Assembly (NCBI GenBank): GCA_900769175.1
Contig: CAAGFP010000108.1
Span: 1,107-65,106, forward strand
Origin: Lachnospiraceae bacterium
GTDB taxonomy: Bacteria; Bacillota; Clostridia; Lachnospirales; Lachnospiraceae
Direction of reading: 5' to 3'
Length of the DNA stretch: 64,000 nucleotides
Positions 1-50,652 of this stretch are shown piece by piece; within the stretch, counting starts at the first letter, position 1; the number at the start of each line of letters is the position of its first letter. Below the pieces are notes generated by a model. The model was not told the origin of the DNA and searched no databases. It saw only the letters and a list, made by a program, of their open reading frames with translations. Position numbers and translations under genes: made by a program.

Positions 1-51
1 ATTCAGTTCTTGTTGCTTTAATTCAGCATATGTACTTTCAACAATATTCAC
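1..51 (-). CDS. 5' end of an unknown gene running off the window (begins GTG, 'VNIVESTYAELKQQELN...'). It lies immediately downstream of the MTase and could be the partner of an R-M module, but that is unproven.
   Basis: AGGAGG Shine-Dalgarno at 61-66 sits 9 nt upstream of a GTG at 51-49. The frame stays open to the window edge. Only 17 codons are visible. Confidence 0.25.
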   Translation of the reverse strand, partial: MNIVESTYAELKQQELN

Positions 52-68
52 TTGCGAAACCTCCTGTC

Positions 69-1340
69 TTATTTTTCTAATTGCTCTTTTATTTTATCCG
101 CGATTATTTTTGCCATCATCGGTGGAACTGCATTTCCAACTTGCACAAACTGCGAGGTTCTTGGTCCCTCAAAATAATAACTATCCGGAAATGACTGTAT
201 TCTTGCAGCCTCTCTTACAGTAATAGATCTGTGTTGGTCTATATCCGGGTGAATAAAATAATGTCCATCTTTTGATAAGTGTGCCAATATGGTATGGCAA
301 TAATCCATATCTCCTTCTACAACCTTAAATCTATCAACAAAGGATGTTCTATTCCTATGTGTCTTCAGTTCATCTGGCAAATCATCATATTTCAATCTTT
401 CATGCTTAGCATTCTCAAACCACAAATCGATTGTTCTTTTATATATCTCAATATCTTGGGCTGTATGTGGTCTTGCAATATGGCCTGTCAAAACATCAGA
501 TTTTACTCTGATTTCATTCTCCTTAACATATTTTCTTAGTCTACGCATATCGGACATCGTATGTTCTTCTGCCGATTCACCCGGAGTCAAAGTCGGTAAG
601 TCCTTCAATAAGTCCCAAACTTCGGCATCACTATGGATTGTTTCAAATGATGGATATTCATATCCTGTACCTTTTAACCATCCAACAATAATTACCCTTT
701 TTCGACTCTGTAATACTCCAAAATCATGTGCATTAAGTTCATGATAATCTATCTCATATCCTACCTTACGCATATATTTCTGAAGATTCTTAAATGCCTG
801 TCCTCCACGTGCAGTTTTGATACCTGCTACATTTTCAAATACAAACATTCTTGGTTTATATTTATTCAGAAACTGAACATACATCTTATATAATTCATTT
901 CGTGGATCTTCTTCCATCGGCACAAGCATATGGCTACTTTGTGCTCTTCCAACCAATGAATATGCTTGGCATGGAGGACCTCCTATAATAACATCCACTT
1001 GCTCGATTTCTTTCTCAGCTATAATGGTATCTATGGTTTGAAAAATACCTTTAATGGTTGATTCTGACATTTCTTTATTGATGACTGTCTTTAGCTCTTC
1101 ATCTGGAATCAACTCTAATAATTGCTCTCGAGATATTTCGTTTCTCTCGTATTGATAATAGCTATCTAAGTTGTCATTTTCTTTCAAGTAATAATAGGCA
1201 ATTCTTGTTTCTATTGTCTTTGCCGCATGTTCGTTCATCTCTACATGTGCAATTGGTCTATAACCACTTTGAATGAAACCTTCGGACAGTCCTCCGGCAC
1301 CAGCAAAGAGGTCGATATAGCTTAAACCGTTATCATTCAT
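69..1340 (-). CDS. DNA (cytosine-5)-methyltransferase
   Basis: 423 aa with motif I 'DLFAGAGGLSEGF', the catalytic PCQ motif 'GGPPCQAYS', an 'ENV' motif and a C-terminal 'QVGNAV' motif X. This is the canonical C5-MTase architecture. Confidence 0.9.
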   Translation of the reverse strand: MNDNGLSYIDLFAGAGGLSEGFIQSGYRPIAHVEMNEHAAKTIETRIAYYYLKENDNLDSYYQYERNEISREQLLELIPDEELKTVINKEMSESTIKGIFQTIDTIIAEKEIEQVDVIIGGPPCQAYSLVGRAQSSHMLVPMEEDPRNELYKMYVQFLNKYKPRMFVFENVAGIKTARGGQAFKNLQKYMRKVGYEIDYHELNAHDFGVLQSRKRVIIVGWLKGTGYEYPSFETIHSDAEVWDLLKDLPTLTPGESAEEHTMSDMRRLRKYVKENEIRVKSDVLTGHIARPHTAQDIEIYKRTIDLWFENAKHERLKYDDLPDELKTHRNRTSFVDRFKVVEGDMDYCHTILAHLSKDGHYFIHPDIDQHRSITVREAARIQSFPDSYYFEGPRTSQFVQVGNAVPPMMAKIIADKIKEQLEK

Positions 1341-1380
1341 GGTTATCCTACCTTATCATCTCATATTTGCTGTCCAAAAA

Positions 1381-1656
1381 TCAGGACTCCAAAGATTCCT
1401 CATGGATTTTTTTCTTCACATTTTCTAATTCAGTGAATTCCATGATATCTCCTATATTGCATTCTAATTCTGCACAGATTTTCTCTAAAATTGGCAATGC
1501 CACCATTTCCTCATTAGTCATTCTGGCCATGGTACTGCTGCTAATTTTTACAGTCTTGCACAGTTCACTTTTATTTATTTTTTTATCAATCATTAACTTC
1601 CATAAATTGTTGTATGATACTGCCATAATTTCCTCCGTACTGATATCAAAATACAA
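1381..1656 (-). CDS. small XRE/Cro-type HTH protein (controller C-protein-like) immediately upstream of the methyltransferase
   Basis: 91 aa with an HTH_3-like core ('INKSELCKTVKISSSTMARMTNEE'). It lies 40 bp upstream of the MTase on the same strand, the arrangement typical of C-regulated R-M modules. Confidence 0.65.
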   Translation of the reverse strand: MYFDISTEEIMAVSYNNLWKLMIDKKINKSELCKTVKISSSTMARMTNEEMVALPILEKICAELECNIGDIMEFTELENVKKKIHEESLES

Positions 1657-1945
1657 TTATCCCATCTTATTTCATTATAACCATAGCATCCTCATTTGTA
1701 AAATACTTTATTTGATTTCTCAAATACAAATTACGACTTGTTACACTCTTCATTCGCAATAAAAGGCGCGGTCGTAAGATTACGTAAGGTGTAATTTTAA
1801 ATTCATCATTGAAATTCCGTCTTATCGCACCAGGAGCCTCGCAAAATAACTAATAGAAATGTTTAGTTTCATATGACCTTTTCATAATCTTATATAAAAC
1901 AATTCAGGTGCTACAGCCTATGCCATAGCACCCAAATCATTAACA

Positions 1946-4015
1946 CTATCGACTGTCCCTGTTTCGCACGACTCTCTTCTCTCGCATGCCAGCCTCATAA
2001 ATATGGTCAAACACTTCATACCGCTTCTGCTGATCCATATCAACTCCAAGTCTGTCAATTTCCTTGTTAAACAACTTAATCCCAGCAAAATACTCCATAT
2101 CTCCAAAGTCAAACGCCTCCGATAATATATCTGCCGAATATTCTGTAAGTCTACTCGAATCAATTCCAAGCAGTTCCAGCCTATCTACTATCTGTTCCGT
2201 TTGTACTTGGATAGCAGCTTCCGACTTCTGTTTCTCATAATAATCCGTCAAAAGCTTAGTCTCCTCATAAACAGAATCAAAACCTGTGTCCATACCAATC
2301 TTTTCAAAATAAGTCCTAACCATCTCAAATGCTGCATCTGTTCCCTTGTCATCAAACGGATAACAACGTACTTTTTCAGCTACACTCATTCTCATATAAT
2401 CAGCCTTATCAGATGGTAATCTCACCGTTTCACCATACTCTCGAATATCCTCATTCTGCAAGCCAGGCTCGACACTCACATCCATCATATCAATATCTGT
2501 TTCTACAACGCTTTCAGCATCTGTAATAGCAGTCTTCCCAACAGTTTTAACACCTGTAACAGCAGTCTCTGCAAACGCTTCTGCCTCTGTTTCAAGCTCA
2601 TTATCTACAATCGCTTCAAACTCCGGTTCCGTAATTACATCTGCTTCCACAGCATCATCCAAAGCAGTATTCTCTACTTCCACAACCTCCGGCACTCGAT
2701 AAGGATTTCCGGGCACTTCGTCTTTTTCAACATCTACCAAATCTACCATATCATCAACCGGTATCCGCATTTCCAATTCCGCCTCCATCAGACTCCCATC
2801 CCGCTCAAGGCACCGCTCCACCGCTTTCAACTTCTTTCGATTATCCTTCTTTTGAAGCTTAATCTGCTCCAAACGCTCCCGATAATCACCCTCTGATACT
2901 TCAAAGAATTCCAAATCTTGTGCAGTCTTGCATGACCTTTTCTGTAAAGCCCTGTCCCCGTACATTTCCTTCTGTGCCTTGCACAGTTCCTCATCCACCT
3001 GTTGTAATCTCAGCTTCAAGCGGAACAAATCACCATATGACTTCACATCATACTTGACCAACACCAGATACTCTTCCTGAAGCTCATGCATTTTCCGTAT
3101 CTGCTCATACAGATAAGCAGATTTATAAGTAAACCGCTTTTTCTCAGCCAGCCGCAAACGATACATCCTTGCATAGCACTTTCTCTGGTATGGTGTTAGA
3201 ACAGCTTTTCTTACCGGCAGCAATGAAACAGTTCGATTTACAGGAGATGCAAGACTTGCGTCCCCATATCGAAACATAGCTTCCAGACTCTCTCTGCTCA
3301 AATCCTCCGAAATGGTATCCAGTCTTTTAAACTGCTTCATCTCCGGAACCTTCACAGCGATATGCTTGCCCTGTTTTACTTCAAAGCCCAGCTTCTCCAG
3401 AAGAAATATAAAATGCTCCATATTTTCTGCACTGATGGCACAAAACAAGGCATCCTGCTTGATCCATTTGGAAAATGCCTGCTCACGCTCCCACTGTGGT
3501 CTTGCCATATTCTTCGGTTCCTTGCTGTATTCAGCCGGAGTGATATGCAGTCCGTATTCTTCACAGAGCTTATTGGTAATGGGCTGGAATTTATATTTCC
3601 AGTCACCATCCCGGCACTGAAACTTGTATCCGGTCACCATGTTTACACTGTTTATTATGATGTGGGCATGAAGATGTTCCCTGTCTGTATGGACAGCCAC
3701 CACCGCCTCATATTCACCTGCAAATGCCTCCCCGGCAAACCGCATTGCAATATCATACATAATCTCCGGTGTTCCCTCTCCGGGTTTTAGGGATATTACA
3801 AAATGATATCCTTGCCTTCCGCCGGTTTTGCCAAACATCCGCTTTGTCGCCTTCATCTGTCGGTAAGCCATCTCCGGCAGGCAGTTGATACCGCCTGCCA
3901 GATTTGCCTCCCCAAGCTTTTTCGGTTGTAAAATATAGTTGATGGAATGCTCCAGATGAATGTCTATTCGAGCCTTGCTGCTTGCCTTCATATGCATCAT
4001 CTTGGTTATTGCCAC
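1946..4015 (-). CDS. mobilization relaxase (Relaxase/MobA-MobL nuclease domain, MOBP-like)
   Basis: 689 aa. The N-terminal domain carries the histidine triad 'VHTDREHLHAHIIIN' typical of pfam03432 relaxases. A long coiled-coil / acidic C-terminal half follows. The gene overlaps the upstream MobC gene by 10 nt. Confidence 0.85.
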   Translation of the reverse strand: MAITKMMHMKASSKARIDIHLEHSINYILQPKKLGEANLAGGINCLPEMAYRQMKATKRMFGKTGGRQGYHFVISLKPGEGTPEIMYDIAMRFAGEAFAGEYEAVVAVHTDREHLHAHIIINSVNMVTGYKFQCRDGDWKYKFQPITNKLCEEYGLHITPAEYSKEPKNMARPQWEREQAFSKWIKQDALFCAISAENMEHFIFLLEKLGFEVKQGKHIAVKVPEMKQFKRLDTISEDLSRESLEAMFRYGDASLASPVNRTVSLLPVRKAVLTPYQRKCYARMYRLRLAEKKRFTYKSAYLYEQIRKMHELQEEYLVLVKYDVKSYGDLFRLKLRLQQVDEELCKAQKEMYGDRALQKRSCKTAQDLEFFEVSEGDYRERLEQIKLQKKDNRKKLKAVERCLERDGSLMEAELEMRIPVDDMVDLVDVEKDEVPGNPYRVPEVVEVENTALDDAVEADVITEPEFEAIVDNELETEAEAFAETAVTGVKTVGKTAITDAESVVETDIDMMDVSVEPGLQNEDIREYGETVRLPSDKADYMRMSVAEKVRCYPFDDKGTDAAFEMVRTYFEKIGMDTGFDSVYEETKLLTDYYEKQKSEAAIQVQTEQIVDRLELLGIDSSRLTEYSADILSEAFDFGDMEYFAGIKLFNKEIDRLGVDMDQQKRYEVFDHIYEAGMREKRVVRNRDSR

Positions 4016-4353
4016 CTGTTCACCACCTCCTGTAATAAATCCTTTATCTGCTCAAGCAGATGATTTCCCGTCCGCATGGTGCTGTCAAAGACATAGCCAC
4101 ACCCGTTGGCAGTTCTTGTCATCTGGTTGTAATTGTTGCAAAGACTGGAAATCTGACTGATTAGATTCCGTCTGTCATAAGCAAGCGTTGTATCTACTCT
4201 TCCACCATGAGTAATCAGATATCTTACATAATCCGATAATTTCATGTTGTTGGCTTTGGCATCATACTCTGCCTGCTCCCGTTCCTCATCCGACAAGCGG
4301 ATGGTAAAATTCTTCCTTGGTTCTATCAATTGTCCTCTTCGTCCTATAAGCAA
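4006..4353 (-). CDS. MobC-family relaxosome accessory protein
   Basis: 115 aa with a ribbon-helix-helix-like N-terminus ('KNFTIRLSDEEREQAEYDAKANNMKLSDYVRYLI'). Position directly upstream of the relaxase and overlapping it. This is the typical mobC-mobA arrangement. Confidence 0.7.
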   Translation of the reverse strand: MLIGRRGQLIEPRKNFTIRLSDEEREQAEYDAKANNMKLSDYVRYLITHGGRVDTTLAYDRRNLISQISSLCNNYNQMTRTANGCGYVFDSTMRTGNHLLEQIKDLLQEVVNRWQ

Positions 4354-4439
4354 TCCCTTCTTTCGTTTCTTTCTTTATCCGTCATTGGAAGTTCCCGTAA
4401 GGTACCCTGTTTCCAAAACTTGTGTAGAGAGAATTTGCC

Positions 4440-4645
4440 AGATACGTAAAACGCCATGCGTTTTACAGAATCTGGTTAGGGGGAGCAAAATCCCCCTAAG
4501 ACCCTCTACATATATGCCCCATTCGGGGCAATTATTTGTAATATCAGCTGTACTACTAGCTCCCATCTGTATTACTGTCGGTATTACCATAAAATAACCT
4601 GTATCACACCCGGTATTACTTTTTATAACCTTTGTAATACCCGGT
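4440..4645. other. candidate origin of transfer (oriT) region
   Basis: Intergenic stretch upstream of mobC containing three inverted repeats: 4445-4468 'cgtaaaacgccatgcgttttacag', 4476-4500 'ttagggggagcaaaatccccctaag' and 4515-4530 'tgccccattcggggca'. It also carries an iteron-like 'GGTATTAC' in three direct copies plus one inverted copy (4570-4642). Confidence 0.4.
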
Positions 4646-4676
4646 GTATTAACTTCTTATGACCTACTTGCTACAG

Positions 4677-5123
4677 TTACGTCAAAAACGACATCGCATA
4701 ATCCGCAATATCATCATCCAATATCTCCAAAGACTCTTCAGAAACTTTGAAATTATCTTCACTTTCTCCCAGTGTTGTCTGCGATATCTCATGTGATATT
4801 AGATTATCATTCTGCATTACAGCCAGACCTTTCACTTGCTCCTCGACAATCAGCTTCACTGCATTAATAATCCGGTCTGCTTCTCCAGACATTGCATTCT
4901 GGATTGCCTCTCTCTGGGCATTCAACTCACAAACAAGACGCTTTTCACTCTCATCCTGCTTTATGCCTTGAACCACCCTTATCAACGCACTTTTTATAAA
5001 CTTGCTCTTATCTCCAAAACAGGGTTCTATGGCACCTCCGGTTAAAAAACTCCAGATTTCCATATCCTCTTCCCTGTTCAGGTTGAGACGGAAGCTGACT
5101 GTCACACTGTCACCACGTGCCAT
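4677..5123 (-). CDS. hypothetical protein of the mobile element (148 aa from the RBS-supported start)
   Basis: AAAGGAGG RBS precedes the ATG for 'MARGDSVTVSFRLNLNREED...'. I recognise no motif. The C-terminus is acidic. Confidence 0.4.
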   Translation of the reverse strand: MARGDSVTVSFRLNLNREEDMEIWSFLTGGAIEPCFGDKSKFIKSALIRVVQGIKQDESEKRLVCELNAQREAIQNAMSGEADRIINAVKLIVEEQVKGLAVMQNDNLISHEISQTTLGESEDNFKVSEESLEILDDDIADYAMSFLT

Positions 5124-5252
5124 GCTGCCTCCTTTCCGGTTTCCAAGGTTCATGTGCTTCAGATATCTTTTGATTGCAGCAGCCAAATGCTTTTGCTATA
5201 ATGTATTTGCGAGATACATAGCGAAGCTTTGGCTTTGCAACCAAGTCCTTTC

Positions 5253-5531
5253 CTAATCGGATTGGACTTTTTCTTTTGTCTGATAGCCGCACTTCTCAGC
5301 CACCATGCCGGCTTTCTGTGTCAGGTCATCACCCGGATTGTAGTAATCTGCATATCCGTAAATCTTCTGTTCAAAATATTTACGGGGGCATTTCCCACGC
5401 ATGGTATAGAACCCTCGAGCATCCAGTTCGGCATTGTATGTCTTAATAACTGCGTATGCCTTTGTCATACCAACTCCCAGAATCTGACTGACTTCCTTTG
5501 CATCAATAAATGCTTCCTTTGTTGTTATCAT
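5253..5531 (-). CDS. small DNA-binding protein, excisionase/HTH_17-like (putative Xis or recombination directionality factor)
   Basis: 92 aa. 'KEVSQILGVGMTKAYAVIKTYNAELDARGF' resembles MerR/excisionase-type HTH. It is positioned divergently from the XRE regulator and near the integrase. Confidence 0.45.
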   Translation of the reverse strand: MITTKEAFIDAKEVSQILGVGMTKAYAVIKTYNAELDARGFYTMRGKCPRKYFEQKIYGYADYYNPGDDLTQKAGMVAEKCGYQTKEKVQSD

Positions 5532-5818
5532 ACAGCTCCTCCTTTCTATTAAATTTGTATTACCGATACGAATTTGAAACCTTCTGTTAAATCATTCAAG
5601 TTATAATCCGTATTTTTAGTTCGTGTTTAATCATAATACATCTTTCAAAACATGTCAATGGATTTTTATAAAAATACGCACTTGCAATTCGTATTTGTTC
5701 ATGGTATAGTATTTATAACGTTACAAATCAGTTACTTTTTGGTACGGATTTCTTGGTTTTACGCAAAATACGAATCAAAACAACTGAACAGTAACAGTAA
5801 TAAAAGGAAGGTGATGAT

Positions 5819-6493
5819 ATGGCTTTATCAGATGACCAGCGTTTTGCCATGTATACCGCAGAGGAAATCGGTAATGCAATTAAGAAACGCCGCAGACAGT
5901 TAAAGATAACGCAGAAAGAATTTGCCCAAAGACTTGATAAGTCGGAGCGTACCATTCAAAAATACGAATCCGGCGAAATCACCATGAAGATTGATTTAAT
6001 CAAACAGGTGGCTGATGAACTGGATATTCCGTGGCAGGAGCTTCTGGAAGCAAAGTCTGATAAGATTGGTATCGTATCCGCAGAAGAGGATTTTCCGGCT
6101 TATCGCTTTCATAACCTGTCAGACGTTATCAATGCATTATTTACAATAACGGAGATTAAAGATATTGCATTCCAGCTCTCCTGCACCAAACCCCCGGAAA
6201 ATCCCGAGTGGACTTCAGCCCTCATGGTTGACGGCAAAGGAAGCGGAATCTATAATGCAGACTTCTGTCTCTTTATGGAAAACTGGATGAATAAGCTTGC
6301 TGCTTTACAAAGCGGTTCCATAAGTCAAGAGCAGTTTGATACTTGGAAAAGAGAAACTTTGGAATATTATTCTGACAGCTTCTTCTCTGATTTCAGTTCA
6401 CAGAGAGAAAAGGTAAAAAAGAGCAAAGGAGTAAAGAAGAAACCTGATTATTCAACCATTCAGATTGTTTCTACCAAAGAAGAGGATAACTAA
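5819..6493 (+). CDS. XRE-family transcriptional regulator with an uncharacterised C-terminal domain
   Basis: N-terminal HTH_3 ('IKKRRRQLKITQKEFAQRLDKSERTIQKYESGE'). The ~140-aa C-terminal region has no recognisable motif. RBS 'aaaggaagg' precedes the start. Confidence 0.8.
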   Translation: MALSDDQRFAMYTAEEIGNAIKKRRRQLKITQKEFAQRLDKSERTIQKYESGEITMKIDLIKQVADELDIPWQELLEAKSDKIGIVSAEEDFPAYRFHNLSDVINALFTITEIKDIAFQLSCTKPPENPEWTSALMVDGKGSGIYNADFCLFMENWMNKLAALQSGSISQEQFDTWKRETLEYYSDSFFSDFSSQREKVKKSKGVKKKPDYSTIQIVSTKEEDN

Positions 6494-6672
6494 AATCCTC
6501 AATAATATTTGAAAAAATGTAGATTATATCATAGCCTTTGGAAACATGCACCCAAAACCATAATTTTCAGGTCAGGTGCGATACATACCGCAATCACGCG
6601 GTTCTACTTTAGAACATTATCCGATGCAAGATTTTCGGACAATTCTAAAGATACTTACATTTTACAAAGGAG

Positions 6673-7944
6673 ATGATGTTTATGCCAGCTTACAAAGATA
6701 ACAAGACTGGTAAATGGTTCTGCAAGTTCTACTATACGGACTGGCAGGGCAACAACCGACAAAAGTGGAAACGAGGCTTCGCCACTAAAAAGGAAGCTCT
6801 GACTTATGAAAGGGATTTTCTTGAAAAGCAGTCTGCCAACCCGGATATGACTTTCCAGAATCTCTACGAACTTTATATGGAGGATATGACCGCCCGCTTG
6901 AAGCAGTCAACCATACTGACCAAGAAGCATATTTGTGAAACTCACATCCTGCCTTTCTTTGGCAAGAAGCCAATCAATGAAATCAAGGCTTCCGATGTGA
7001 GAAGATGGCAGAATCAGTTGATGAATTCCCCAAAAGGATATTCAAAAACTTATCTGAAAACCATCAATAATCAGCTCACCTGCATGATTAACTACGCAAA
7101 ACGCTTCTACGATTTAAACACAAATCCCTGTGGTCAAGCAGGAAGCATCGGACAGGCAAAGGCAGAGGAAATGGATTACTGGACTTACGATGAGTATATT
7201 GCTTTTCGTGAGGGCATTAAGGACAAGCCTCTATCCTATATCTGCTTTCAGGTACTGTACTGGACCGGGATGCGTGAAGGGGAGCTTCTGGCTCTTACTG
7301 CTGCTGATATCGACCTTGTTGTAAAACAGATTGATATCAACAAAACTTATCAGCGTCTTCACGGAGAGGATATCATCACCACTCCAAAGACAAGGAAAAG
7401 TAAGAGAAAAGTTCCAATTCCGGATTTTCTGTGTCAGGAACTGCAGGAGTATATGGATTCCCGTTATATGCTTGCTCCAAATGAGAGGCTCTTTCCCATT
7501 ACAAAATCTTTTCTCTCCCACGAGATGGAAAGAGGGTGTAAGGCAACCGGCGTAAAGAGAATCCGTATCCATGACATCCGCCACTCCCACGCAAGCCTCC
7601 TCATCAATCAGGGTTGCGATGCACTTATCCTCGCTGACAGACTTGGACATGAAAAAGTATCCACAACACTGAATACTTACTCCCACCTGTTTCCACACAA
7701 ACAGCAGGAGCTTGTCAGCAATTTGGAACAGCTTGCAGCTACAGTTGGTGTCACACCGACACCGGAGCCTCCAATGGGAAATCCACTGCTTGAAACCATG
7801 GGTATTTCCTATGATGGTGACATGGCAGGTGATTCAGTTACTCCGGATACAGAATATGCCAATAAGGGACTTCCATATGGACCTATGCCAAAAGAAACAG
7901 CATCAGGAAAAGTAATCCCGATGCCTCAAAGAAAAGCTATCTAA
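6673..7944 (+). CDS. int: site-specific tyrosine recombinase / integrase (phage integrase family, Tn916-Int-like with N-terminal arm-binding domain)
   Basis: 423 aa. N-terminus 'YKDNKTGKWFCKFYYTDWQGNNRQKWKRGFATKKEA' is an arm-type DNA-binding domain. The catalytic region carries 'RIHDIRHSHASLLI' and 'LGHEKVSTTLNTYSHL' (the R...HxxR...Y pattern). Confidence 0.9.
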   Translation: MMFMPAYKDNKTGKWFCKFYYTDWQGNNRQKWKRGFATKKEALTYERDFLEKQSANPDMTFQNLYELYMEDMTARLKQSTILTKKHICETHILPFFGKKPINEIKASDVRRWQNQLMNSPKGYSKTYLKTINNQLTCMINYAKRFYDLNTNPCGQAGSIGQAKAEEMDYWTYDEYIAFREGIKDKPLSYICFQVLYWTGMREGELLALTAADIDLVVKQIDINKTYQRLHGEDIITTPKTRKSKRKVPIPDFLCQELQEYMDSRYMLAPNERLFPITKSFLSHEMERGCKATGVKRIRIHDIRHSHASLLINQGCDALILADRLGHEKVSTTLNTYSHLFPHKQQELVSNLEQLAATVGVTPTPEPPMGNPLLETMGISYDGDMAGDSVTPDTEYANKGLPYGPMPKETASGKVIPMPQRKAI

Positions 7945-8002
7945 AAAACAAAACGATGTGAAATAGAGTAGTTGCGGTTAGTAGCAAATTAGTAGCAAAG
8001 CA

Positions 8003-9651: not shown

Positions 9652-9690
9652 TATTATAAAACTGAATATTTTTCGCTTCAAGTTTTTTCT
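9652..9690 (-). promoter_or_regulatory. putative sigma-A promoter of guaA (-35 TTGAAG, 17-nt spacer, -10 TATAAT; minus-strand sense)
   Basis: The reverse complement reads 'cTTGAAGcgaaaaatattcagtttTATAATatgg', about 55 nt upstream of the guaA ATG. Confidence 0.45.
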
Positions 9691-9812
9691 TTTATTCTTA
9701 TAAAATATTTTGTTTCTTTTCTTCAAATTTTTTCTTTTATCCTAATAAAATAATGTTTCTTTTCTTCAAATTTTTCTTTTATTCCAATAAAATATTTTGT
9801 TTCTTTTCTTAC
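9690..9812. repeat. three tandem ~45-bp AT-rich repeat units between spoIIID and guaA
   Basis: Unit consensus is 'ttcaaRttttttcttttatYcYWataaaataWtttgtttcttttc'. The units are contiguous. Each unit, read in guaA sense, carries a TTTGAA(G) -35-like hexamer. The array ends at the spoIIID stop codon. Confidence 0.7.
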
Positions 9813-10096: not shown

Positions 10097-10139
10097 AGAA
10101 TGCCTCTATTGCTTTTTTACATCCTATGAATCAACCGGA

Positions 10140-10260
10140 TAAAATATTCCTATCGCGCGAGTGCGCATCCTTCGCGGAGCGTTTGTTATGTAATAGAAAA
10201 TTCGGGGGAATTTCCTATTACATAACAAAACACGGCAAAGAAACATTCTTTGCCGTGTAA
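10140..10260. repeat. intergenic composite of terminator hairpin (10231-10257), a second 11-bp-arm hairpin (10186-10228) and GC-rich 'box A' motif (10146-10166)
   Basis: 'cgcgcgagtgcgcatccttcgcggagc' recurs at 22988 and 43133. 'cacggcaaagaaacattctttgccgtg' is a classic terminator downstream of the preceding gene. Confidence 0.6.
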
Positions 10261-21302: not shown

Positions 21303-22961
21303 ATGGAGCAATACATAGAGCCGGAAAAATCATACCCCAGTCAAAACAGTCAATATACTGCAGCGAAATCGCAATATGCGAAAGCTTCGAATCCACAACC
21401 AAAGTCTGCCTGTCTTGAACTAAAAAAGGAATTTGTCCATATGCTAAACAGTGAATCCAGTGCAGGAAGCGAAACGGTTTTGGAAAAGGATTTCATTCTT
21501 CCGGATTCTGCCGAAGATATGGTAAGGATTCTGTTAATAGATCCTCTTGTATGCACAGAGGAAGCAACCGCGGGTGAAAACCGCATGGAATTCAAAGGAA
21601 ACTTACAGGTAAACTTCCTTTATCAGTCAGACATTAATCCGAATGCACTTTGCAGACAGCAATTTAAAATTCCCTTCCGTGAAGTCGTAAAACTTGACGG
21701 GCTTAACGCCGCCGACAAGCCGGAATGGGAAATCAATGTCGATAAATTCTCACTTTTACGGGTGAACGAGCGAAAGGCCGTATTTAAAGGCACTCTTGAG
21801 TTTTCCTGTGTGTTAGGCCAGATTCGGGACGAAGAAATCGTAACCGGAATTGTTTCGGACGAAGAATGTGAAATCCGGACAGAACAATATCAATGCCTGT
21901 CCTTAAGCGGAATGAAAAATGATTTATTCCGCATCCGTGAGGAAATGAAGCTTCCCGCCAGCGCACCTGCCGTTTCTTCCATTATCTGGCAGTCGCTTTC
22001 AATCCGGAATTTTGAAGCAAAGCCTCTGCGCGAGCAGCTTGCAATCCGCGGAGAGCTCAATGCGTTTATTATTTACACGGATGAAACCGAGCAGACCTAT
22101 TTCAAAGAATCCACGATTCCTTTCCACGGAACCTTGGAATGTGACGGCTGTGATGAAGATTCCATCGTAAACGTTTCCTATTCCATTGACAAACAGCTTT
22201 GCGAAATCCGCCCGGACGATGAAGGCGAAGACAGAAATATCAGTTTGGAAGTCAACCTCAAACTCTATATCAAAGTATTTGAAAATATGCGTACCGACTG
22301 CATGAGCGATGCCTATGCCGGAAAGAGCGAACTGATTCTTGACAAAAAAGAAATATCCTGTTTTGAATTTCTGACAAATTCCATGGAAAGTTTTCGCATT
22401 GACCAGATGGTTCCCGTTCCGTCCGAAAATGAGAGAATCGATGAAATTCTGCATGCTTCTTTCGACATTGAAATTACCTCTGTCAGCCGCGACCAAAATA
22501 ATCTGTTAACAAGAGGAAACCTTTGCGTGCAGCTCTTCTTTACTGTCACAGATGACCGTTTTCCTTACCGCAGCAGTACTTTCAAAGTTCCGTTCACGCA
22601 CAGCAGTGGCATTTCCGGTCTGAGTCCGGATACGGAATACCGGATTCAGGGAACGCCGGAAAACATTTCCGTTACCGTATTCGATACGGAGAATCTTCAA
22701 TTCAAGGCCGTGGTGATGCTTAATATTTTTGCAATGAATAAAATCAATCACACGAGCGTCAGCTGTGTGACTTCCATTCCGAATTCTTCTGAAAAACGAA
22801 AGAAAAGTTACGGCATTACCGTCTTCTTCCCGGATAAAAACAATAATACATTATGGGAGGTCGGAAAAGAAACCGGAATTCCCTTATCGAGAATCCGTTC
22901 CTTAAATCATTTAAGTCCTGACGCAGAAACTTATAAAGATAAAATCATCGTGATGAAATAA
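21303..22961 (+). CDS. DUF3794-like repeat protein with C-terminal LysM-like domain (SipL-like, possible spore morphogenesis protein)
   Basis: 552 aa. The C-terminal 45 aa ('ITVFFPDKNNNTLWEVGKETGIPLSRIRSLNHLSPDAETYKDKIIV') fits the LysM pattern. The architecture resembles Clostridial SipL. The assignment is tentative. Confidence 0.4.
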   Translation: MEQYIEPEKSYPSQNSQYTAAKSQYAKASNPQPKSACLELKKEFVHMLNSESSAGSETVLEKDFILPDSAEDMVRILLIDPLVCTEEATAGENRMEFKGNLQVNFLYQSDINPNALCRQQFKIPFREVVKLDGLNAADKPEWEINVDKFSLLRVNERKAVFKGTLEFSCVLGQIRDEEIVTGIVSDEECEIRTEQYQCLSLSGMKNDLFRIREEMKLPASAPAVSSIIWQSLSIRNFEAKPLREQLAIRGELNAFIIYTDETEQTYFKESTIPFHGTLECDGCDEDSIVNVSYSIDKQLCEIRPDDEGEDRNISLEVNLKLYIKVFENMRTDCMSDAYAGKSELILDKKEISCFEFLTNSMESFRIDQMVPVPSENERIDEILHASFDIEITSVSRDQNNLLTRGNLCVQLFFTVTDDRFPYRSSTFKVPFTHSSGISGLSPDTEYRIQGTPENISVTVFDTENLQFKAVVMLNIFAMNKINHTSVSCVTSIPNSSEKRKKSYGITVFFPDKNNNTLWEVGKETGIPLSRIRSLNHLSPDAETYKDKIIVMK

Positions 22962-23078
22962 CGCGCGTACGCAAGCAACTATCTTCTTTACGCGCGCATG
23001 CGCATCCTGCGCGGAGCAAAGAATCTCGCAAGCGAGATTCTTTGCTCCGGTTGCGTGTTGTGTAAGCAACTTTCTACT
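22961..23078. repeat. composite copy of the dispersed GC-rich intergenic repeat family (modules A and B plus a 17-bp-arm hairpin)
   Basis: Contains 'acgcaagcaactatcttcttt', 'acgcgcgcatgcgcatcctgcgcggagc' (box A), the perfect hairpin 'cggagcaaagaatctcgc-aag-gcgagattctttgctccg', and 'gttgcgtgttgtgtaagcaactttctacttt' (box B). Confidence 0.65.
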
Positions 23079-23984
23079 TTATTTCACACATCCGATTAAT
23101 TCATGAATATCTTCAATTCGGTGTTTTTTCATATAACCTTCTATTCCGTCTATCACAGCAAGAGTCGCATAGGGATTTACAAAATTCATTGCGCCGACGG
23201 AAACCGCAGCTGCACCTGCCATAATAAATTCAAGCGCATCTTCTCCCGTTGCGATTCCGCCCATTCCGATAATGGGAATCTGCACGGCATTCGCACACTG
23301 GTAAACCATACGTACGGCAACCGGTTTGATGGCAGGGCCGGATAATCCACCCGTTTTGTTGGCAAGAAGGAAGGTTCTTTTTTCTACATCGATTTTCATA
23401 CCGGTAATCGTATTGATCAGCGAAATGGCATCAGCCCCCGCTGCTTCTGCAGCCTTTGCCATTTCTGTAATATCCGTTACGTTCGGGCTTAACTTCATAA
23501 TGACCGGCTGTTTTGCCACTGCTTTGATTCGTTTCGTAATATCAAAGAGCGCGTCTGCTTTCTGTCCAAACGCAATAGCACCTTCTTTTACATTCGGACA
23601 GGATACATTGATTTCGAGCATTTTAACAATTTGACTGTCGCCGAGGCGTTCAACCGTTTCAAGATAATCCTCCACCGTTTTCCCGCATACATTGACAATG
23701 ACATTCGTTTCATAGTTTTTCAAAAACTCCAGATCCCGTTCCATAAACACATCGATTCCCGGATTCTGCAAACCGATGGCGTTTAACATTCCGCCATAGG
23801 TTTCTGCAACTCTCGGCGTCGGATTTCCCGGCCAGGGCACATTTGCAACACCCTTTGTCACAATTCCGCCAAGCGCATTTAAATCAACAAAATTACTGTA
23901 TTCCATACCGGAACCAAAGGTTCCCGAAGCAGTCATAACGGGATTTTTAAATTTAACTCCTGCAATGGTAACTTCCGTATTCAT
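23079..23984 (-). CDS. pyrD: dihydroorotate dehydrogenase (class 1B) catalytic subunit
   Basis: 'IAGVKFKNPVMTASGTFG' N-terminus. 301 aa. Overlaps pyrK (ATGA). Confidence 0.9.
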   Translation of the reverse strand: MNTEVTIAGVKFKNPVMTASGTFGSGMEYSNFVDLNALGGIVTKGVANVPWPGNPTPRVAETYGGMLNAIGLQNPGIDVFMERDLEFLKNYETNVIVNVCGKTVEDYLETVERLGDSQIVKMLEINVSCPNVKEGAIAFGQKADALFDITKRIKAVAKQPVIMKLSPNVTDITEMAKAAEAAGADAISLINTITGMKIDVEKRTFLLANKTGGLSGPAIKPVAVRMVYQCANAVQIPIIGMGGIATGEDALEFIMAGAAAVSVGAMNFVNPYATLAVIDGIEGYMKKHRIEDIHELIGCVK

Positions 23985-42229: not shown

Positions 42230-43105
42230 TTACTGCTTTTCGCTATCTGTTTTTGCCTTTCTGTCATTTTTTGCAGGTAACACATTCGATAATAAAAGCA
42301 GGGGAATGGCAAGAAACACAGCACCTCCCAAAATATTACCGATTGTAACAGGCAAAAGATTTCCGATCAAAAAGTTTTTCACAGACAACTGTTCCAAAGC
42401 CTTTGGCGATATCTGATACTGTAAGATAGCAGCATTTACATATTCCGGATTACATTTACAAAGCAGTCCTGCGGAAATGTAATACATATTCGCCACACAA
42501 TGTTCGAATCCCGAGGTTACAAACGCAAAGATAACAAAAAAGGAAGAAAGAAGCTTCCCTGCAACATCTTTTGCACACATTGCCAGCAAAACAGCTGCGC
42601 AGACTAAAATATTACATAGAATCCCGGAACAGACTCCCCTTGAAAACGGGATGGTCGCTTTTGCAAGAGCCACTTTTATCGTATAAGCGCCAAGCAGATT
42701 GCCGGAATAATCAAACTGACCGGAGAAATAAGTCAGTGCTGCAATCATAAATCCACCGATGAAATTGCCGATAAAAACCTCTGCAAGAAACTCGATACAT
42801 CTAAGCAGACGAAGTTTTTTGGGTATCAGTCCCGCTATCATCATACAGTCGCCTGTAAACAATTCGGCACCCAGTAAAATCACCATCATTAGTCCGACCG
42901 GGAATACAATTCCTGCCGTCATTCTTGCAACCGAAACATTGGAAATGCTGTGAGAAGCGACATTGCTGGCTGCTGCCCCAATGGCAATCATCGCACCTGC
43001 CATAATCGCTTTCCCGAAGGTTACCATTCTTTTTGCTTCTGTTTTCTTCGGAATCGTCTCCATATACATATTCATGGTTTCCGTTACTGTATTAAATCCA
43101 CTCAT
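42230..43105 (-). CDS. formate/nitrite transporter (FNT) family channel
   Basis: 'GAELFTGDCMM' and 'FVTSGFEHCVANMY' are FNT signature regions. Start set at MSGF, preceded by a GGAG RBS. The longer ORF runs into the upstream repeat element. Confidence 0.8.
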   Translation of the reverse strand: MSGFNTVTETMNMYMETIPKKTEAKRMVTFGKAIMAGAMIAIGAAASNVASHSISNVSVARMTAGIVFPVGLMMVILLGAELFTGDCMMIAGLIPKKLRLLRCIEFLAEVFIGNFIGGFMIAALTYFSGQFDYSGNLLGAYTIKVALAKATIPFSRGVCSGILCNILVCAAVLLAMCAKDVAGKLLSSFFVIFAFVTSGFEHCVANMYYISAGLLCKCNPEYVNAAILQYQISPKALEQLSVKNFLIGNLLPVTIGNILGGAVFLAIPLLLLSNVLPAKNDRKAKTDSEKQ

Positions 43106-43127
43106 CTTTTTCTCCATTTTGTTTCTG

Positions 43128-43250
43128 TTCGACGCGCGTGCACATCCTTCGCGGAGCATTTTTTTCATCATCGGAAATACAAAAGAATTTTCGATGATGA
43201 AAAAAACACCCAGAAATATTATAATCTGAGTGTTTTTTTTCGTCAATTGT
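43128..43250. repeat. intergenic composite of terminator hairpin, a second 15-bp-arm hairpin and GC-rich 'box A' (43133-43158)
   Basis: 'cgcgcgtgcacatccttcgcggagc', then 'ttcatcatcggaaat...attttcgatgatgaa', then 'acacccagaaatattataatctgagtgt' plus a T8 run. Confidence 0.6.
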
Positions 43251-43342
43251 ATTTCTCCCGGTACAATGATATACCAGTTCTTTCATTCGTAAGCAACTCT
43301 TCTGATGCGAGAATATCATCCCCTGAAAAAGTACTTCTTCTG

Positions 43343-49452: not shown

Positions 49453-49616
49453 TTGTATGACCATCCTTTCTTTTTTCAACGTGATTATAGCAAGACAGTA
49501 TGGGGATTGCAAGAAAAAACAACGCAAAAAAACAACGCAAGATTCTGACTTTTTTTATTTTTTTCTAGCAGATTTCAAAAAGCTTTGCTACAATAAAGAA
49601 AGACATAGAAGATAGA

Positions 49617-49690
49617 ACAAAGAATCCCGCTTGCGAGATTCTTCGCGCCGAGTGCGTGTTGCGTAAGCAACTTTCTTCTTTTCTCGCAAG
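49617..49690. repeat. upstream copy of a ~75-bp direct repeat flanking the AraC gene (hairpin + box B)
   Basis: 'aagaatcccgcttgcgagattcttcgcgccgagtgcgtgttgcgtaagcaactttcttcttttctcgcaag'. Confidence 0.7.
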
Positions 49691-49718
49691 TATATGGGAA
49701 AAACGATTGGAGAAAAAT

Positions 49719-50459
49719 ATGAAACCAAAGAAAACGAATTACACTCCACCGGAACGGCTTCAGGTGGATCACGGCTCATACGAAAGAGAAATGAGTTTCT
49801 ATGACGCAGTTAAAACCGGCGACATGAAATATGTGGAAGCCCGCATAAAGGAGATAGACGCAACACCGTCCACCCAGCAGGAGCGCGGCAAGCTCTCCGA
49901 AGACCCGGTAAGAAATGCCATGTATCATTTCATCATCGCCACCGCAATTATTGCAAGAGTCTGTATTGAAGGCGGTATGGAGCACGATTTAGCCTATTCC
50001 ATGAGTGATTATTATATCCAAAAGGGTGATTTATGCAAAACCATAGATGATATCACTGCTCTTCGCAACAGAATGGTGTTCGATTATTGCAAGAAAATGA
50101 AACAGCAGACCACAGCGGAAATCTATTCCAAACAAGTGGTGCTGGCAATTGATTACATTTACGAAAATCTTGAAAAGCCCATAAGCGTAAAAGGAATTGC
50201 GGACAGCATCGGCATCAATGAAACCTATCTGTCCAAGCTGTTCAAGCGCGAAACCGGCATTTCCGTTAGTGCATACATTCGCCAGCGTCGTATCGAAACC
50301 GCCGAAAAAATGTTGCTGTATTCTGATTTGTCGTACGACGAAATTGCAGAAACACTCTGTTTTTCATCCCAGAGCCATTTTACGAAAGTATTCAAAGAAG
50401 TCACCGGCACAACACCAAAGGTATATCGCGACCGGAATTTCAGAAAAAACTTTTTATAA
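49719..50459 (+). CDS. AraC-family transcriptional regulator
   Basis: The C-terminal AraC HTH reads 'AYIRQRRIETAEKMLLYSDLSYDEIAETLCFSSQSHFTKVFKEVTGTTPKVYR'. Start set at MKPKK, with a GGAGAAAAAT RBS. The longer ORF begins inside the repeat. Confidence 0.85.
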   Translation: MKPKKTNYTPPERLQVDHGSYEREMSFYDAVKTGDMKYVEARIKEIDATPSTQQERGKLSEDPVRNAMYHFIIATAIIARVCIEGGMEHDLAYSMSDYYIQKGDLCKTIDDITALRNRMVFDYCKKMKQQTTAEIYSKQVVLAIDYIYENLEKPISVKGIADSIGINETYLSKLFKRETGISVSAYIRQRRIETAEKMLLYSDLSYDEIAETLCFSSQSHFTKVFKEVTGTTPKVYRDRNFRKNFL

Positions 50460-50467
50460 AATTAAAA

Positions 50468-50545
50468 AAGAATGTGCCTTGGCACATTCTCGCGCCGAGC
50501 GCATGTTGCGTAAGCAACTTTCTTCTTTTTGCGCGAGCGCGCAAT
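50468..50545. repeat. downstream copy of the ~75-bp direct repeat flanking the AraC gene (hairpin + box B); its hairpin also serves as the acpP terminator
   Basis: 'aagaatgtgccttggcacattctcgcgccgagcgcatgttgcgtaagcaactttcttctttttgcgcgagcgcgc'. Confidence 0.7.
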
Positions 50546-50652
50546 AAACAACCCCCGATAGAAACTGCTACCGGGAGGCTTTTCGTTTATACCATTATGA
50601 TTCTAATGTCTGACAGGGATTCATTCCGTCCGAAACGTTCCGATATGAAATC

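Follow-up and report, generated by a model that had tools for sequence, protein, structure and literature searches.

Repeats flanking an AraC-family regulator gene in a Lachnospiraceae bacterium are probably remnants of a structured dispersed repeat that lies behind intrinsic terminators

The stretch of DNA analyzed here (hereafter the window) comprises 64,000 nucleotides of a Lachnospiraceae bacterium (GenBank assembly GCA_900769175.1, contig CAAGFP010000108.1) and includes an AraC-family regulator gene (hereafter AraC), which lies between a divergent OmpA-like gene and the convergent gene acpP and shares a bidirectional terminator with the latter. Two near-identical repeats in the same orientation bracket AraC, one in the divergent promoter region (copy 1) and one just past the AraC stop codon (copy 2), and an initial annotation of this DNA, made from the sequence alone, proposed that they might mobilize the gene as a cassette or else form a shared cis-regulatory or terminator module. 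We find related modules at three further loci of the window and in other gut bacteria, and conclude that the two repeats are probably decayed copies, truncated at the 5' end, of the 3' portion (module A and a hairpin, H1) of a ~140-nt non-coding, structured, dispersed repeat of gut Clostridia. The coordinates of the features are collected in Table 1.

The two repeats are readily delimited. A 39-nt pattern, CGCGCCGAGYGCRTGTTGCGTAAGCAACTTTCTTCTTTT, has exactly two matches in the 64 kb, both on the plus strand and both coinciding with the A modules of Table 1, and none across 100 shuffles. Copy 1 (49620-49690) and copy 2 (50468-50543) are 95% identical over a 40-nt core, and a gap-free extension covers 48 nt at 90% identity (49643-49690 versus 50490-50537). 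Each begins with a hairpin, AAGAATCCCGC-TT-GCGAGATTCTT with one C.A mismatch in copy 1 and AAGAATGTGCC-TT-GGCACATTCT in copy 2, whose outer arms are AAGAAT/ATTCTT in both cases and whose inner stems are unlike in sequence yet complementary. Aligning 12 strain and locus variants of H1 left 93% of cells paired, with double-sided changes in four of the ten stem pairs. The hairpin is followed in the repeat copies by a GTTGC-GTAA-GCAAC palindrome and a T/C-rich tail, so that the repeat pair, the structure kept through compensating changes, and the palindromic core are all as the initial annotation had described them. Its further remark, that spurious open reading frames (ORFs) on both sides start with the peptide MLRKQLSSF, holds for the upstream ORF, a GTG-started in-frame extension of AraC, and not for the second ORF, in which the peptide lies near the C-terminus; a six-frame search with the repeat peptide for spurious ORFs at other copies returned 42 candidates, none of them scoring. 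Read on the minus strand, H1 fits the sequence pattern of a predicted intrinsic terminator (a GC-containing stem followed by a U-tract), and a terminator scan picks out both copies. Copy 1 lies in a T-rich stretch, and the predicted extended -10 element of the AraC promoter would place it, in antisense, inside the AraC 5' untranslated region (UTR).

Using RsmI homologues as a graded series of relatives, we next consider the age of the gene. In the sister lineage (contigs L071 and L072), RsmI is 93% identical and AraC is 95% identical in amino acids and 89% in nucleotides, the order rsmI-acpP-AraC is retained, and AraC is convergent with acpP. Alignments to these contigs show clean gaps, at least 60 nt long upstream and ~85 nt long downstream of AraC, which are exactly the repeats; around them the AraC promoter region, ribosome-binding-site region, stop-codon region, and terminator are conserved, and in L071 the terminator directly follows the AraC stop codon (49-bp spacer). 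Three contigs with 81% RsmI identity (L074-L076) also hold AraC at the equivalent site, convergent with acpP and without repeats (the L074 orthologue is 57% identical), and in a 96% lineage (P0015) the contig stops inside the terminator. Because both the sister and the 81% lineage hold AraC at this site without either repeat, these comparisons indicate that AraC is ancestral and predates the repeats, and gain of both fragments in the window lineage appears the parsimonious history.

These relatives also bear on the cassette, i.e., a mobile or excisable AraC unit that was inserted with duplicated ends or is lost by recombination between the repeats. The presence of two same-orientation copies around a single gene, sharing 40-48 nt of high identity, speaks for such a unit, but the gene occurs without repeats at the equivalent site in the sister and in a more distant lineage, and the repeats are not restricted to AraC, three unrelated loci of the window and other bacteria having them too. 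Further, AraC and both copies are present in all ten same-species contigs (no loss of AraC among them), and in L077, the sole relative without AraC, the site holds an unrelated gene and is free of the repeat. The initial annotation had expected relatives with a single repeat and no AraC; the relatives found have AraC and no repeat, and we regard an AraC cassette as highly improbable. The locus does not resemble an integron cassette with an attC site either: AraC is repeat-free in relatives, a repeat stands on each side of the gene, and there is no adjacent integrase. An AraC operator or autoregulation site, a CRISPR remnant, a dif or attC site, and a small peptide gene were likewise considered for the repeats and dropped.

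Alignment with the sister lineage further identifies the conserved bidirectional terminator as CCCCCGATAG...CTATCGGGGG, and the acpP terminator is older than copy 2. The initial annotation had the downstream repeat hairpin double as the acpP terminator. The conserved primary terminator of acpP and AraC is, however, the one at 50552-50577. Downstream of it, the repeat hairpin (50468-50490; T-run on the minus strand) forms a second terminator-like structure that is specific to the lineage, and to this extent the claim holds. Two other features of this neighborhood are separate from the repeats: ~57 nt between the acpP stop codon and the terminator (50586-50650) are absent from the sister lineage, an insertion distinct from the repeats that is also specific to this lineage and contains an imperfect hairpin (GGGATTCAT...ATGAAATCC), and a perfect 13-nt tandem duplication (AAAAAACAACGCA twice, 49514-49539) lies just 5' of the predicted promoter of the OmpA-like gene. 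As a synteny anchor this OmpA-like neighbor was uninformative, its homologues at 45-49% identity being non-syntenic and free of the modules.

Table 1. Coordinates of the AraC locus and of the repeat-family loci in the window, with matches to the covariance model R1 (all on the minus strand)
Feature	Position	Strand	Parts and remarks	R1 match (position; bits; E)
AraC-family regulator gene, 246 aa	49719..50459	+	Pfam HTH_AraC/HTH_18; ancestral at the locus; outside the repeat element	
Predicted extended -10 of the AraC promoter	49586..49594	+	TGCTACAAT; conserved in the sister lineage	
Bidirectional terminator hairpin	50552..50577	.	acpP (minus) and AraC (plus); kept in L071, L072, and L100	
Copy 1, 5'-truncated family fragment	49615..49690	-	A module 49644-49682 (small P3 hairpin 49658-49671); H1 49620-49643; tail TTTGTTC on minus strand; absent from sister lineage L071/L072	49615-49722; 38; 2e-7
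Copy 2, 5'-truncated family fragment	50463..50543	-	14-nt box B remnant 50530-50543; A module 50491-50529 (P3 50505-50518); H1 50468-50490; TTTTTT on minus strand; absent from L071/L072	50463-50583; 58; 4e-12
Terminator-scan row, copy 1	49646-49617	-	13 pairs	
Terminator-scan row, copy 2	50491-50468	-	10 pairs; tail TTTTAATTTT	
Locus 3, two truncated units in tandem	22962..23084	-	Between convergent pyrD and LysM-protein gene; plus-strand order A' 22962-22990, B 22991-23017, H1 23012-23049 (16-bp stem), A 23045-23084	22934-23046; 29; 3e-5
3'-truncated unit, H2 + B only (10152 unit)	10152..10235	-	B 10154-10180; H2 10181-10233; nhmmer E 1e-11	10138-10233; 50; 3e-10
3'-truncated unit, H2 + B only (43131 unit)	43131..43215	-	B 43131-43157; H2 43158-43207; nhmmer E 6e-5	43090-43210; 36; 6e-7

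A low-stringency comparison of the window's intergenic DNA revealed a third copy of the repeat at 23017-23080, 86% identical to copy 1 over 64 nt. It belongs to a pair of truncated units (locus 3) that directly follows the pyrD stop codon and in which A' is a shortened A module. A second module, B (CGCGCGAGTGCGCATCCTTCGCGGAGC), occurs at 10154, 22991, and 43131, in each case followed by a long hairpin. The 10152 unit lies upstream of spoIIID, is fixed across 10 strains, and has its start at the T-run with which the terminator of the upstream FKBP-type gene ends (hairpin 10234-10258); ahead of the 43131 unit on the minus strand there is a hairpin with a T-run (~43208-43233). All five loci lie in one orientation, and the GC skew of the plus strand (-0.12 to -0.21) is a lagging-strand composition.

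Several observations were made beside these loci. A possible decayed A core (CGTAAGCAACTCT) at 43288-43300, in the same intergenic region as the 43131 stub, is statistically weak (nhmmer E 0.8). Between spoIIID and guaA lies a ~87-nt tandem repeat (9684-9810; 9684-9723 versus 9771-9810, 95% identical), and the length of the spoIIID-guaA spacer, 128 to 216 nt among strains, points to copy-number variation of this tandem repeat. Downstream of guaA, an integrative mobilizable island occupies 1-8000 and encodes an integrase on the plus strand (6673-7944) and, on the minus strand, a relaxase (1946-4015) and a C5 DNA methylase (69-1340); it continues into SNF2/methylase defence-like genes in related contigs, and other strains have different cargo at the site. 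With the left end of the window being this mobile island, contigs extending that end contributed no host intergenic DNA, and an exact-match look-up of the PyrD protein and of the 1307-aa end gene found neither on record.

Outside the window, a blastn search with copy 2 of a phage collection matched 28 contigs recorded as "UNVERIFIED Bacteriophage sp." from human faeces, the canonical unit of the family matched 35 records at 56 places in this collection, and scans of IMG/VR gave further family copies. The phage-collection records (MT835472-MT839789; L101-L107 and L115-L130) are virome scaffolds with IleS, an ammonium transporter (Amt), a tRNA gene, and other chromosomal genes, and we consider these "phage" contigs to be really bacterial DNA because they carry IleS, Amt, and other housekeeping genes.

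Read in the sense direction (the minus strand of the window), the canonical unit runs from a host terminator hairpin through TTTTTT, an H2 stem, AAAAAA, and box B (CGCTCCGCGAGGATGCGCAC) into the 5' arm of stem P2, a purine tract (e.g., TATAAGGTAGAT), hairpin P3, the 3' arm of P2, GGCGCG, H1 (AGAATGTGCC-AA-GGCACATTCT), and a closing TTTTTT or TTTGTTC. The element's internal A-run pairs with the T-run of the host terminator and thereby completes the H2 hairpin, box B (GCUCCGCGAGGAUGCGCAC) forms a small hairpin with a GCGA loop, P2 encloses the purine-rich strand together with the small hairpin P3, and H1 takes the form AGAAU-NNNNN-loop-NNNNN-AUUCU, followed by a U-run. This architecture is common to at least four subfamilies, which differ in their H2 sequences and in P3 (GTTGC/GCAAC versus GTCGC/GCGAC); two types of H1, GTGCC and CCTGC, occur, both also in the window species. 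In one contig (L101), two tandem units have one common T-run, and truncated and internally deleted forms are found in several genomes, one of the deletions lying between the similar motifs GAGGATG and GAGAATG. Genes near copies are unrelated (Amt, IleS, a SAM methyltransferase, a DUF protein, a small membrane protein, OmpA-like, and spoIIID), and functionally unrelated downstream genes exclude a riboswitch or other ligand-specific leader. Separately, contig L107 carries two TwoAYGGAY RNAs (Rfam RF01731; 16832-16997 and 18471-18634, 90 and 84 bits), which are unrelated to the repeat family.

Membership of the window loci in this family was assessed with a covariance model (R1) built from 20 foreign (non-window) copies alone, and the window was searched with filters off. 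Among these 20 copies, the five-helix structure has 93.5% of cells paired, compared with 39-51% when partners are slid, and double-sided changes occur in 15 of the 46 pairs, a count reached by none of 500 shuffles. R1 matches exactly five window loci, all on the minus strand (E 4e-12 to 3e-5), and nothing else below 5e-4; its remaining window matches either echo palindromes on the opposite strand or have E >= 0.5. With a foreign seed, nhmmer also recovers copy 2 (E 4e-14). No R1 match was found in ~120 kb from close relatives (the sister lineage, the 81% lineage, and the OmpA-homologue relatives). Against Rfam 15, the window gave no match, what the AraC region matched at E up to 10 was noise, and canonical units gave nothing relevant at the gathering threshold or at E <= 10; having no Rfam family, the repeat appears uncurated. 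The initial annotation's idea of units resembling miniature inverted-repeat transposable elements (MITEs) is thereby borne out to the extent that the repeats are members of a dispersed family carrying terminator-like hairpins. The situation that it named as speaking against this, a repeat confined to two loci as part of conserved flanking UTRs, is not what we see, given three further window loci, many copies in other gut bacteria, and the absence of the repeat from the UTRs of relatives.

The position of the family relative to intrinsic terminators is strict. Without exception, the 25 distinct H2-bearing copies begin at the T-run directly behind a hairpin of unrelated sequence, and the 40 nt upstream of H2-bearing copies fold with a mean minimum free energy of -15.3 kcal/mol versus -5.9 kcal/mol for random 40-mers from the same loci; three low-scoring upstream folds are terminators that the script had split in two, and one upstream hairpin is the H1 of a preceding unit. 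A co-oriented ORF ends at most 250 nt upstream in 17 of 26 copies according to a crude and noisy ORF-context script. Within the window, adjacency to a T-run together with co-orientation is seen for the 10152 and 43131 units and for copy 2, which stands directly behind the T-rich tract of the acpP terminator (50552-50577).

Such regularity raises the question of whether these units are a functional structured RNA module kept by selection, either a 3'-UTR or read-through element or a small RNA (sRNA) running from a leaky terminator to H1 and its U-run, with the AraC pieces as its remnants or as active parts (back-up terminator, insulator, or 5'-UTR structure). The five helices covary across subfamilies as they would in a selected RNA, but the copies stand in one lineage and are absent from its sister at orthologous sites, and many of them are truncated at varied points. 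Every copy is co-oriented with the upstream terminated gene, and the start of the next gene often lies 20-60 nt beyond H1, both of which would suit such a module; the flanking genes are nonetheless functionally unrelated to one another. H1 with its U-run is a canonical intrinsic terminator on the sense strand, yet no conserved promoter is visible in the aligned copies (an independent sRNA gene was dropped for this reason). Box B and H1 are conserved in sequence, and no Rfam family matches the repeat. Wobble pairs are divided in the same way: G.U favors the sense strand in the central domain (10 versus 3 events) and among the window H1 variants (3 versus 1), but the overall counts of G.U versus A.C (29 versus 20 cells) pick out no transcribed strand. 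On balance we consider a selected RNA module unlikely.

Strain comparisons provide a view of how the copies change once in place. Among strains, the downstream copy varies in a ~40-nt patch, where H1 and the beginning of A are exchanged for those of another family variant between flanks that are ~99% identical; copy 2 in other strains is directly continuous with the first 14 nt of B. The strain difference at locus 3 is one compensated pair (A-T to T-A), giving GGAGC...GCTCC in some and GGTGC...GCACC in others. These patches and compensated pairs fit conversion between copies or palindrome-correcting template switching, and selection for pairing may also lie behind the strain variation of the hairpins. 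Contigs L094, L095, L006, L007, L009, L010, and L100 end inside repeat hairpins or inside the acpP terminator, i.e., the palindromes are assembly break points; contig ends within repeats were considered as a sign of high copy number and rejected, the two local copies and their palindromes being sufficient to explain them.

That the A modules are 95% identical and that H1 types are exchanged between strains points to a common source copy or to gene conversion between copies. A variant of the dispersed-repeat explanation takes this further and has a single fragment acquired at the locus, the other arising by short-range duplication, or else both being homogenized by gene conversion across 850 bp. 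Copies 1 and 2 are indeed alike in their truncated architecture (A plus H1) and closer to each other in A than locus 3 is (86%), and the downstream copy of the L001 type has an H1 and left-flank bases (GAACAAA) like those of the upstream copy. The truncation points, however, differ, with 14 nt of box B in copy 2 and none in copy 1, and the canonical GTGCC H1 of window-type strains occurs in other genera and calls for a donor other than copy 1. Local copying from a single insertion thus seems to us a minor possibility, a little better placed than a selected RNA module.

We now return to the two repeats as decayed fragments of a dispersed element. Units of the family would spread to new intergenic sites by landing at terminator T-runs, co-oriented with the terminated gene, and would then erode through deletion. 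After the split from the sister lineage, one fragment probably settled behind the acpP terminator, just past the AraC stop codon, and another within the predicted AraC 5' UTR, where the divergent promoter region of AraC and OmpA is T-rich. Mobilization would be in trans, now or formerly, by an enzyme targeting a terminator hairpin plus T-run, through either a single-stranded DNA (ssDNA) transposase route or a reverse-transcription route. What suggests mobility is the sequence evidence of presence/absence at orthologous sites and of multi-copy dispersal (five window loci, and 56 places in 35 gut contigs), as expected of a MITE. As for expression, on the acpP strand, H1 and its U-run would likely act as a back-up terminator, and on the AraC strand, the 5' UTR and the 3' end would likely gain stable hairpins and a weak hairpin-plus-U tract from the antisense copies.

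Several findings weigh against this explanation. Copy 1 is not directly behind a recognizable terminator and sits instead in the T-rich stretch of a divergent promoter region. No within-species insertion polymorphism was seen, all same-species strains carrying the copies, and the density of the family is low, with no copy in 91 kb of unselected contig halves; the copy tally for the window species, at five loci, covers the 64-kb window only. The strong covariation and an H1 sequence that is identical across subfamilies are also compatible with a selected function. Finally, neither an autonomous partner nor terminal inverted repeats were found, nor was there a target-site duplication that could be called unambiguous. 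The ends of the element (TTTTTTACTTTACAGG... and ...GGCACATTCTTTGTTC) are not reverse complements, in which it departs from a classical MITE, and both flanks are T-runs that are also part of H2 and of the H1 tail, the filled versus empty site at acpP being compatible with a short T-rich duplication.

More tentatively, the family might represent an undescribed class of element, widespread in human-gut Clostridia, that specifically recognizes intrinsic terminators (hairpin plus T-run) as landing sites and builds its own 5' hairpin from the host U-tract, with the pieces at AraC as its fossils; we think of this as a possibility well short of probable, in which the element would be either non-autonomous and mobile (served by an ssDNA transposase or a reverse transcriptase) or an RNA module of transcript 3' ends that is transferable, terminates read-through anew, and insulates the genes downstream. 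In the limited literature searched, there was no exact match to three diagnostic family strings and no description by keyword. Scans with the window-type A core (YGYAAGCAACTWTCTWCTTT) of GTDB species representatives and of JGI metagenomes gave only chance matches (15 and 40 loci, respectively, with unrelated flanks), and they are uninformative on the canonical family because this core is lineage-specific. Window-type A and B strings had no match in IMG/VR, and PLSDB yielded no match.

For the locus itself, the outcome is modest: AraC is no mobile regulatory cassette and its repeats are probably two family fossils in place of att sites or operators, which removes a tempting mis-annotation. The repeat family is of moderate interest, and more so than AraC, as a repeat of several common gut Clostridia that is tied to intrinsic terminators with unusual strictness. 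Mobility would make it a cause of assembly breaks, spurious ORFs, and altered 5' and 3' UTRs in gut genomes, whereas a function would make it a portable module for termination or insulation. Either way, R1 offers a means to annotate it.

Among the closest known systems are the small dispersed, MITE-like repeats of bacteria, which include BOX and RUP of Streptococcus pneumoniae, ERIC/IRU of enterobacteria, Correia/NEMIS of Neisseria, bcr1 of the Bacillus cereus group, and EFAR of Enterococcus. Like these, the family is non-coding, of the order of 100-200 nt, multi-copy, exclusively intergenic, strongly folding, and lineage-restricted; like BOX with its A-B-C modules, it is modular and occurs in truncated or mosaic forms; and repeats of the BOX, RUP, and ERIC type are often co-transcribed with their neighbors and able to supply terminators or to alter mRNA structure, as might be the case here. 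Unlike them, the family has no terminal inverted repeats or clear target-site duplication, and its H2-bearing copies all abut a host terminator T-run in one orientation. It has no sequence similarity to Rfam-curated repeat RNAs.

REP/BIME sequences and REPINs, which are mobilized by RAYT, offer a second parallel in being palindromic extragenic units at gene 3' ends, with mosaic modules, compensatory stem changes, and possible roles as terminators or mRNA stabilizers. REP/BIME units are, however, single palindromes of ~20-40 nt with a GTAG-type or CGTC tag, often in inverted pairs, whereas the present family is ~140 nt long, is composed of five different helices, and shows neither a tag nor inverted doublets; no RAYT gene came up, and none was searched for. 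The PATEs derived from IS200/IS605 likewise lack terminal inverted repeats and target-site duplication, have hairpins near both ends, and insert in a specific orientation 3' of a short target, and the location of all window copies on one replication strand would agree with such an element, a strand bias that is confounded with gene orientation. The ends of IS608-type elements are similar hairpins, unlike H2 and H1 of the family, which are unrelated to each other, and no TnpA/TnpB partner was seen in ~0.7 Mb.

Finally, bacterial class C (IIC) group II introns reportedly insert after intrinsic terminators. The family differs from them in size (~140 nt versus an intron RNA of at least 700 nt), in its 5' end (ACUUUACAGG or AUCGUAUAGG in place of GUGYG), and in having no domain V/VI-like sequence, no Rfam group II match (E <= 10), and no reverse transcriptase ORF. 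What the two have in common is the family's most distinctive property, its position immediately downstream of a terminator hairpin and T-run, oriented with the terminated gene; if the family is mobile, it would be a small-element counterpart of the terminator targeting of IIC introns.

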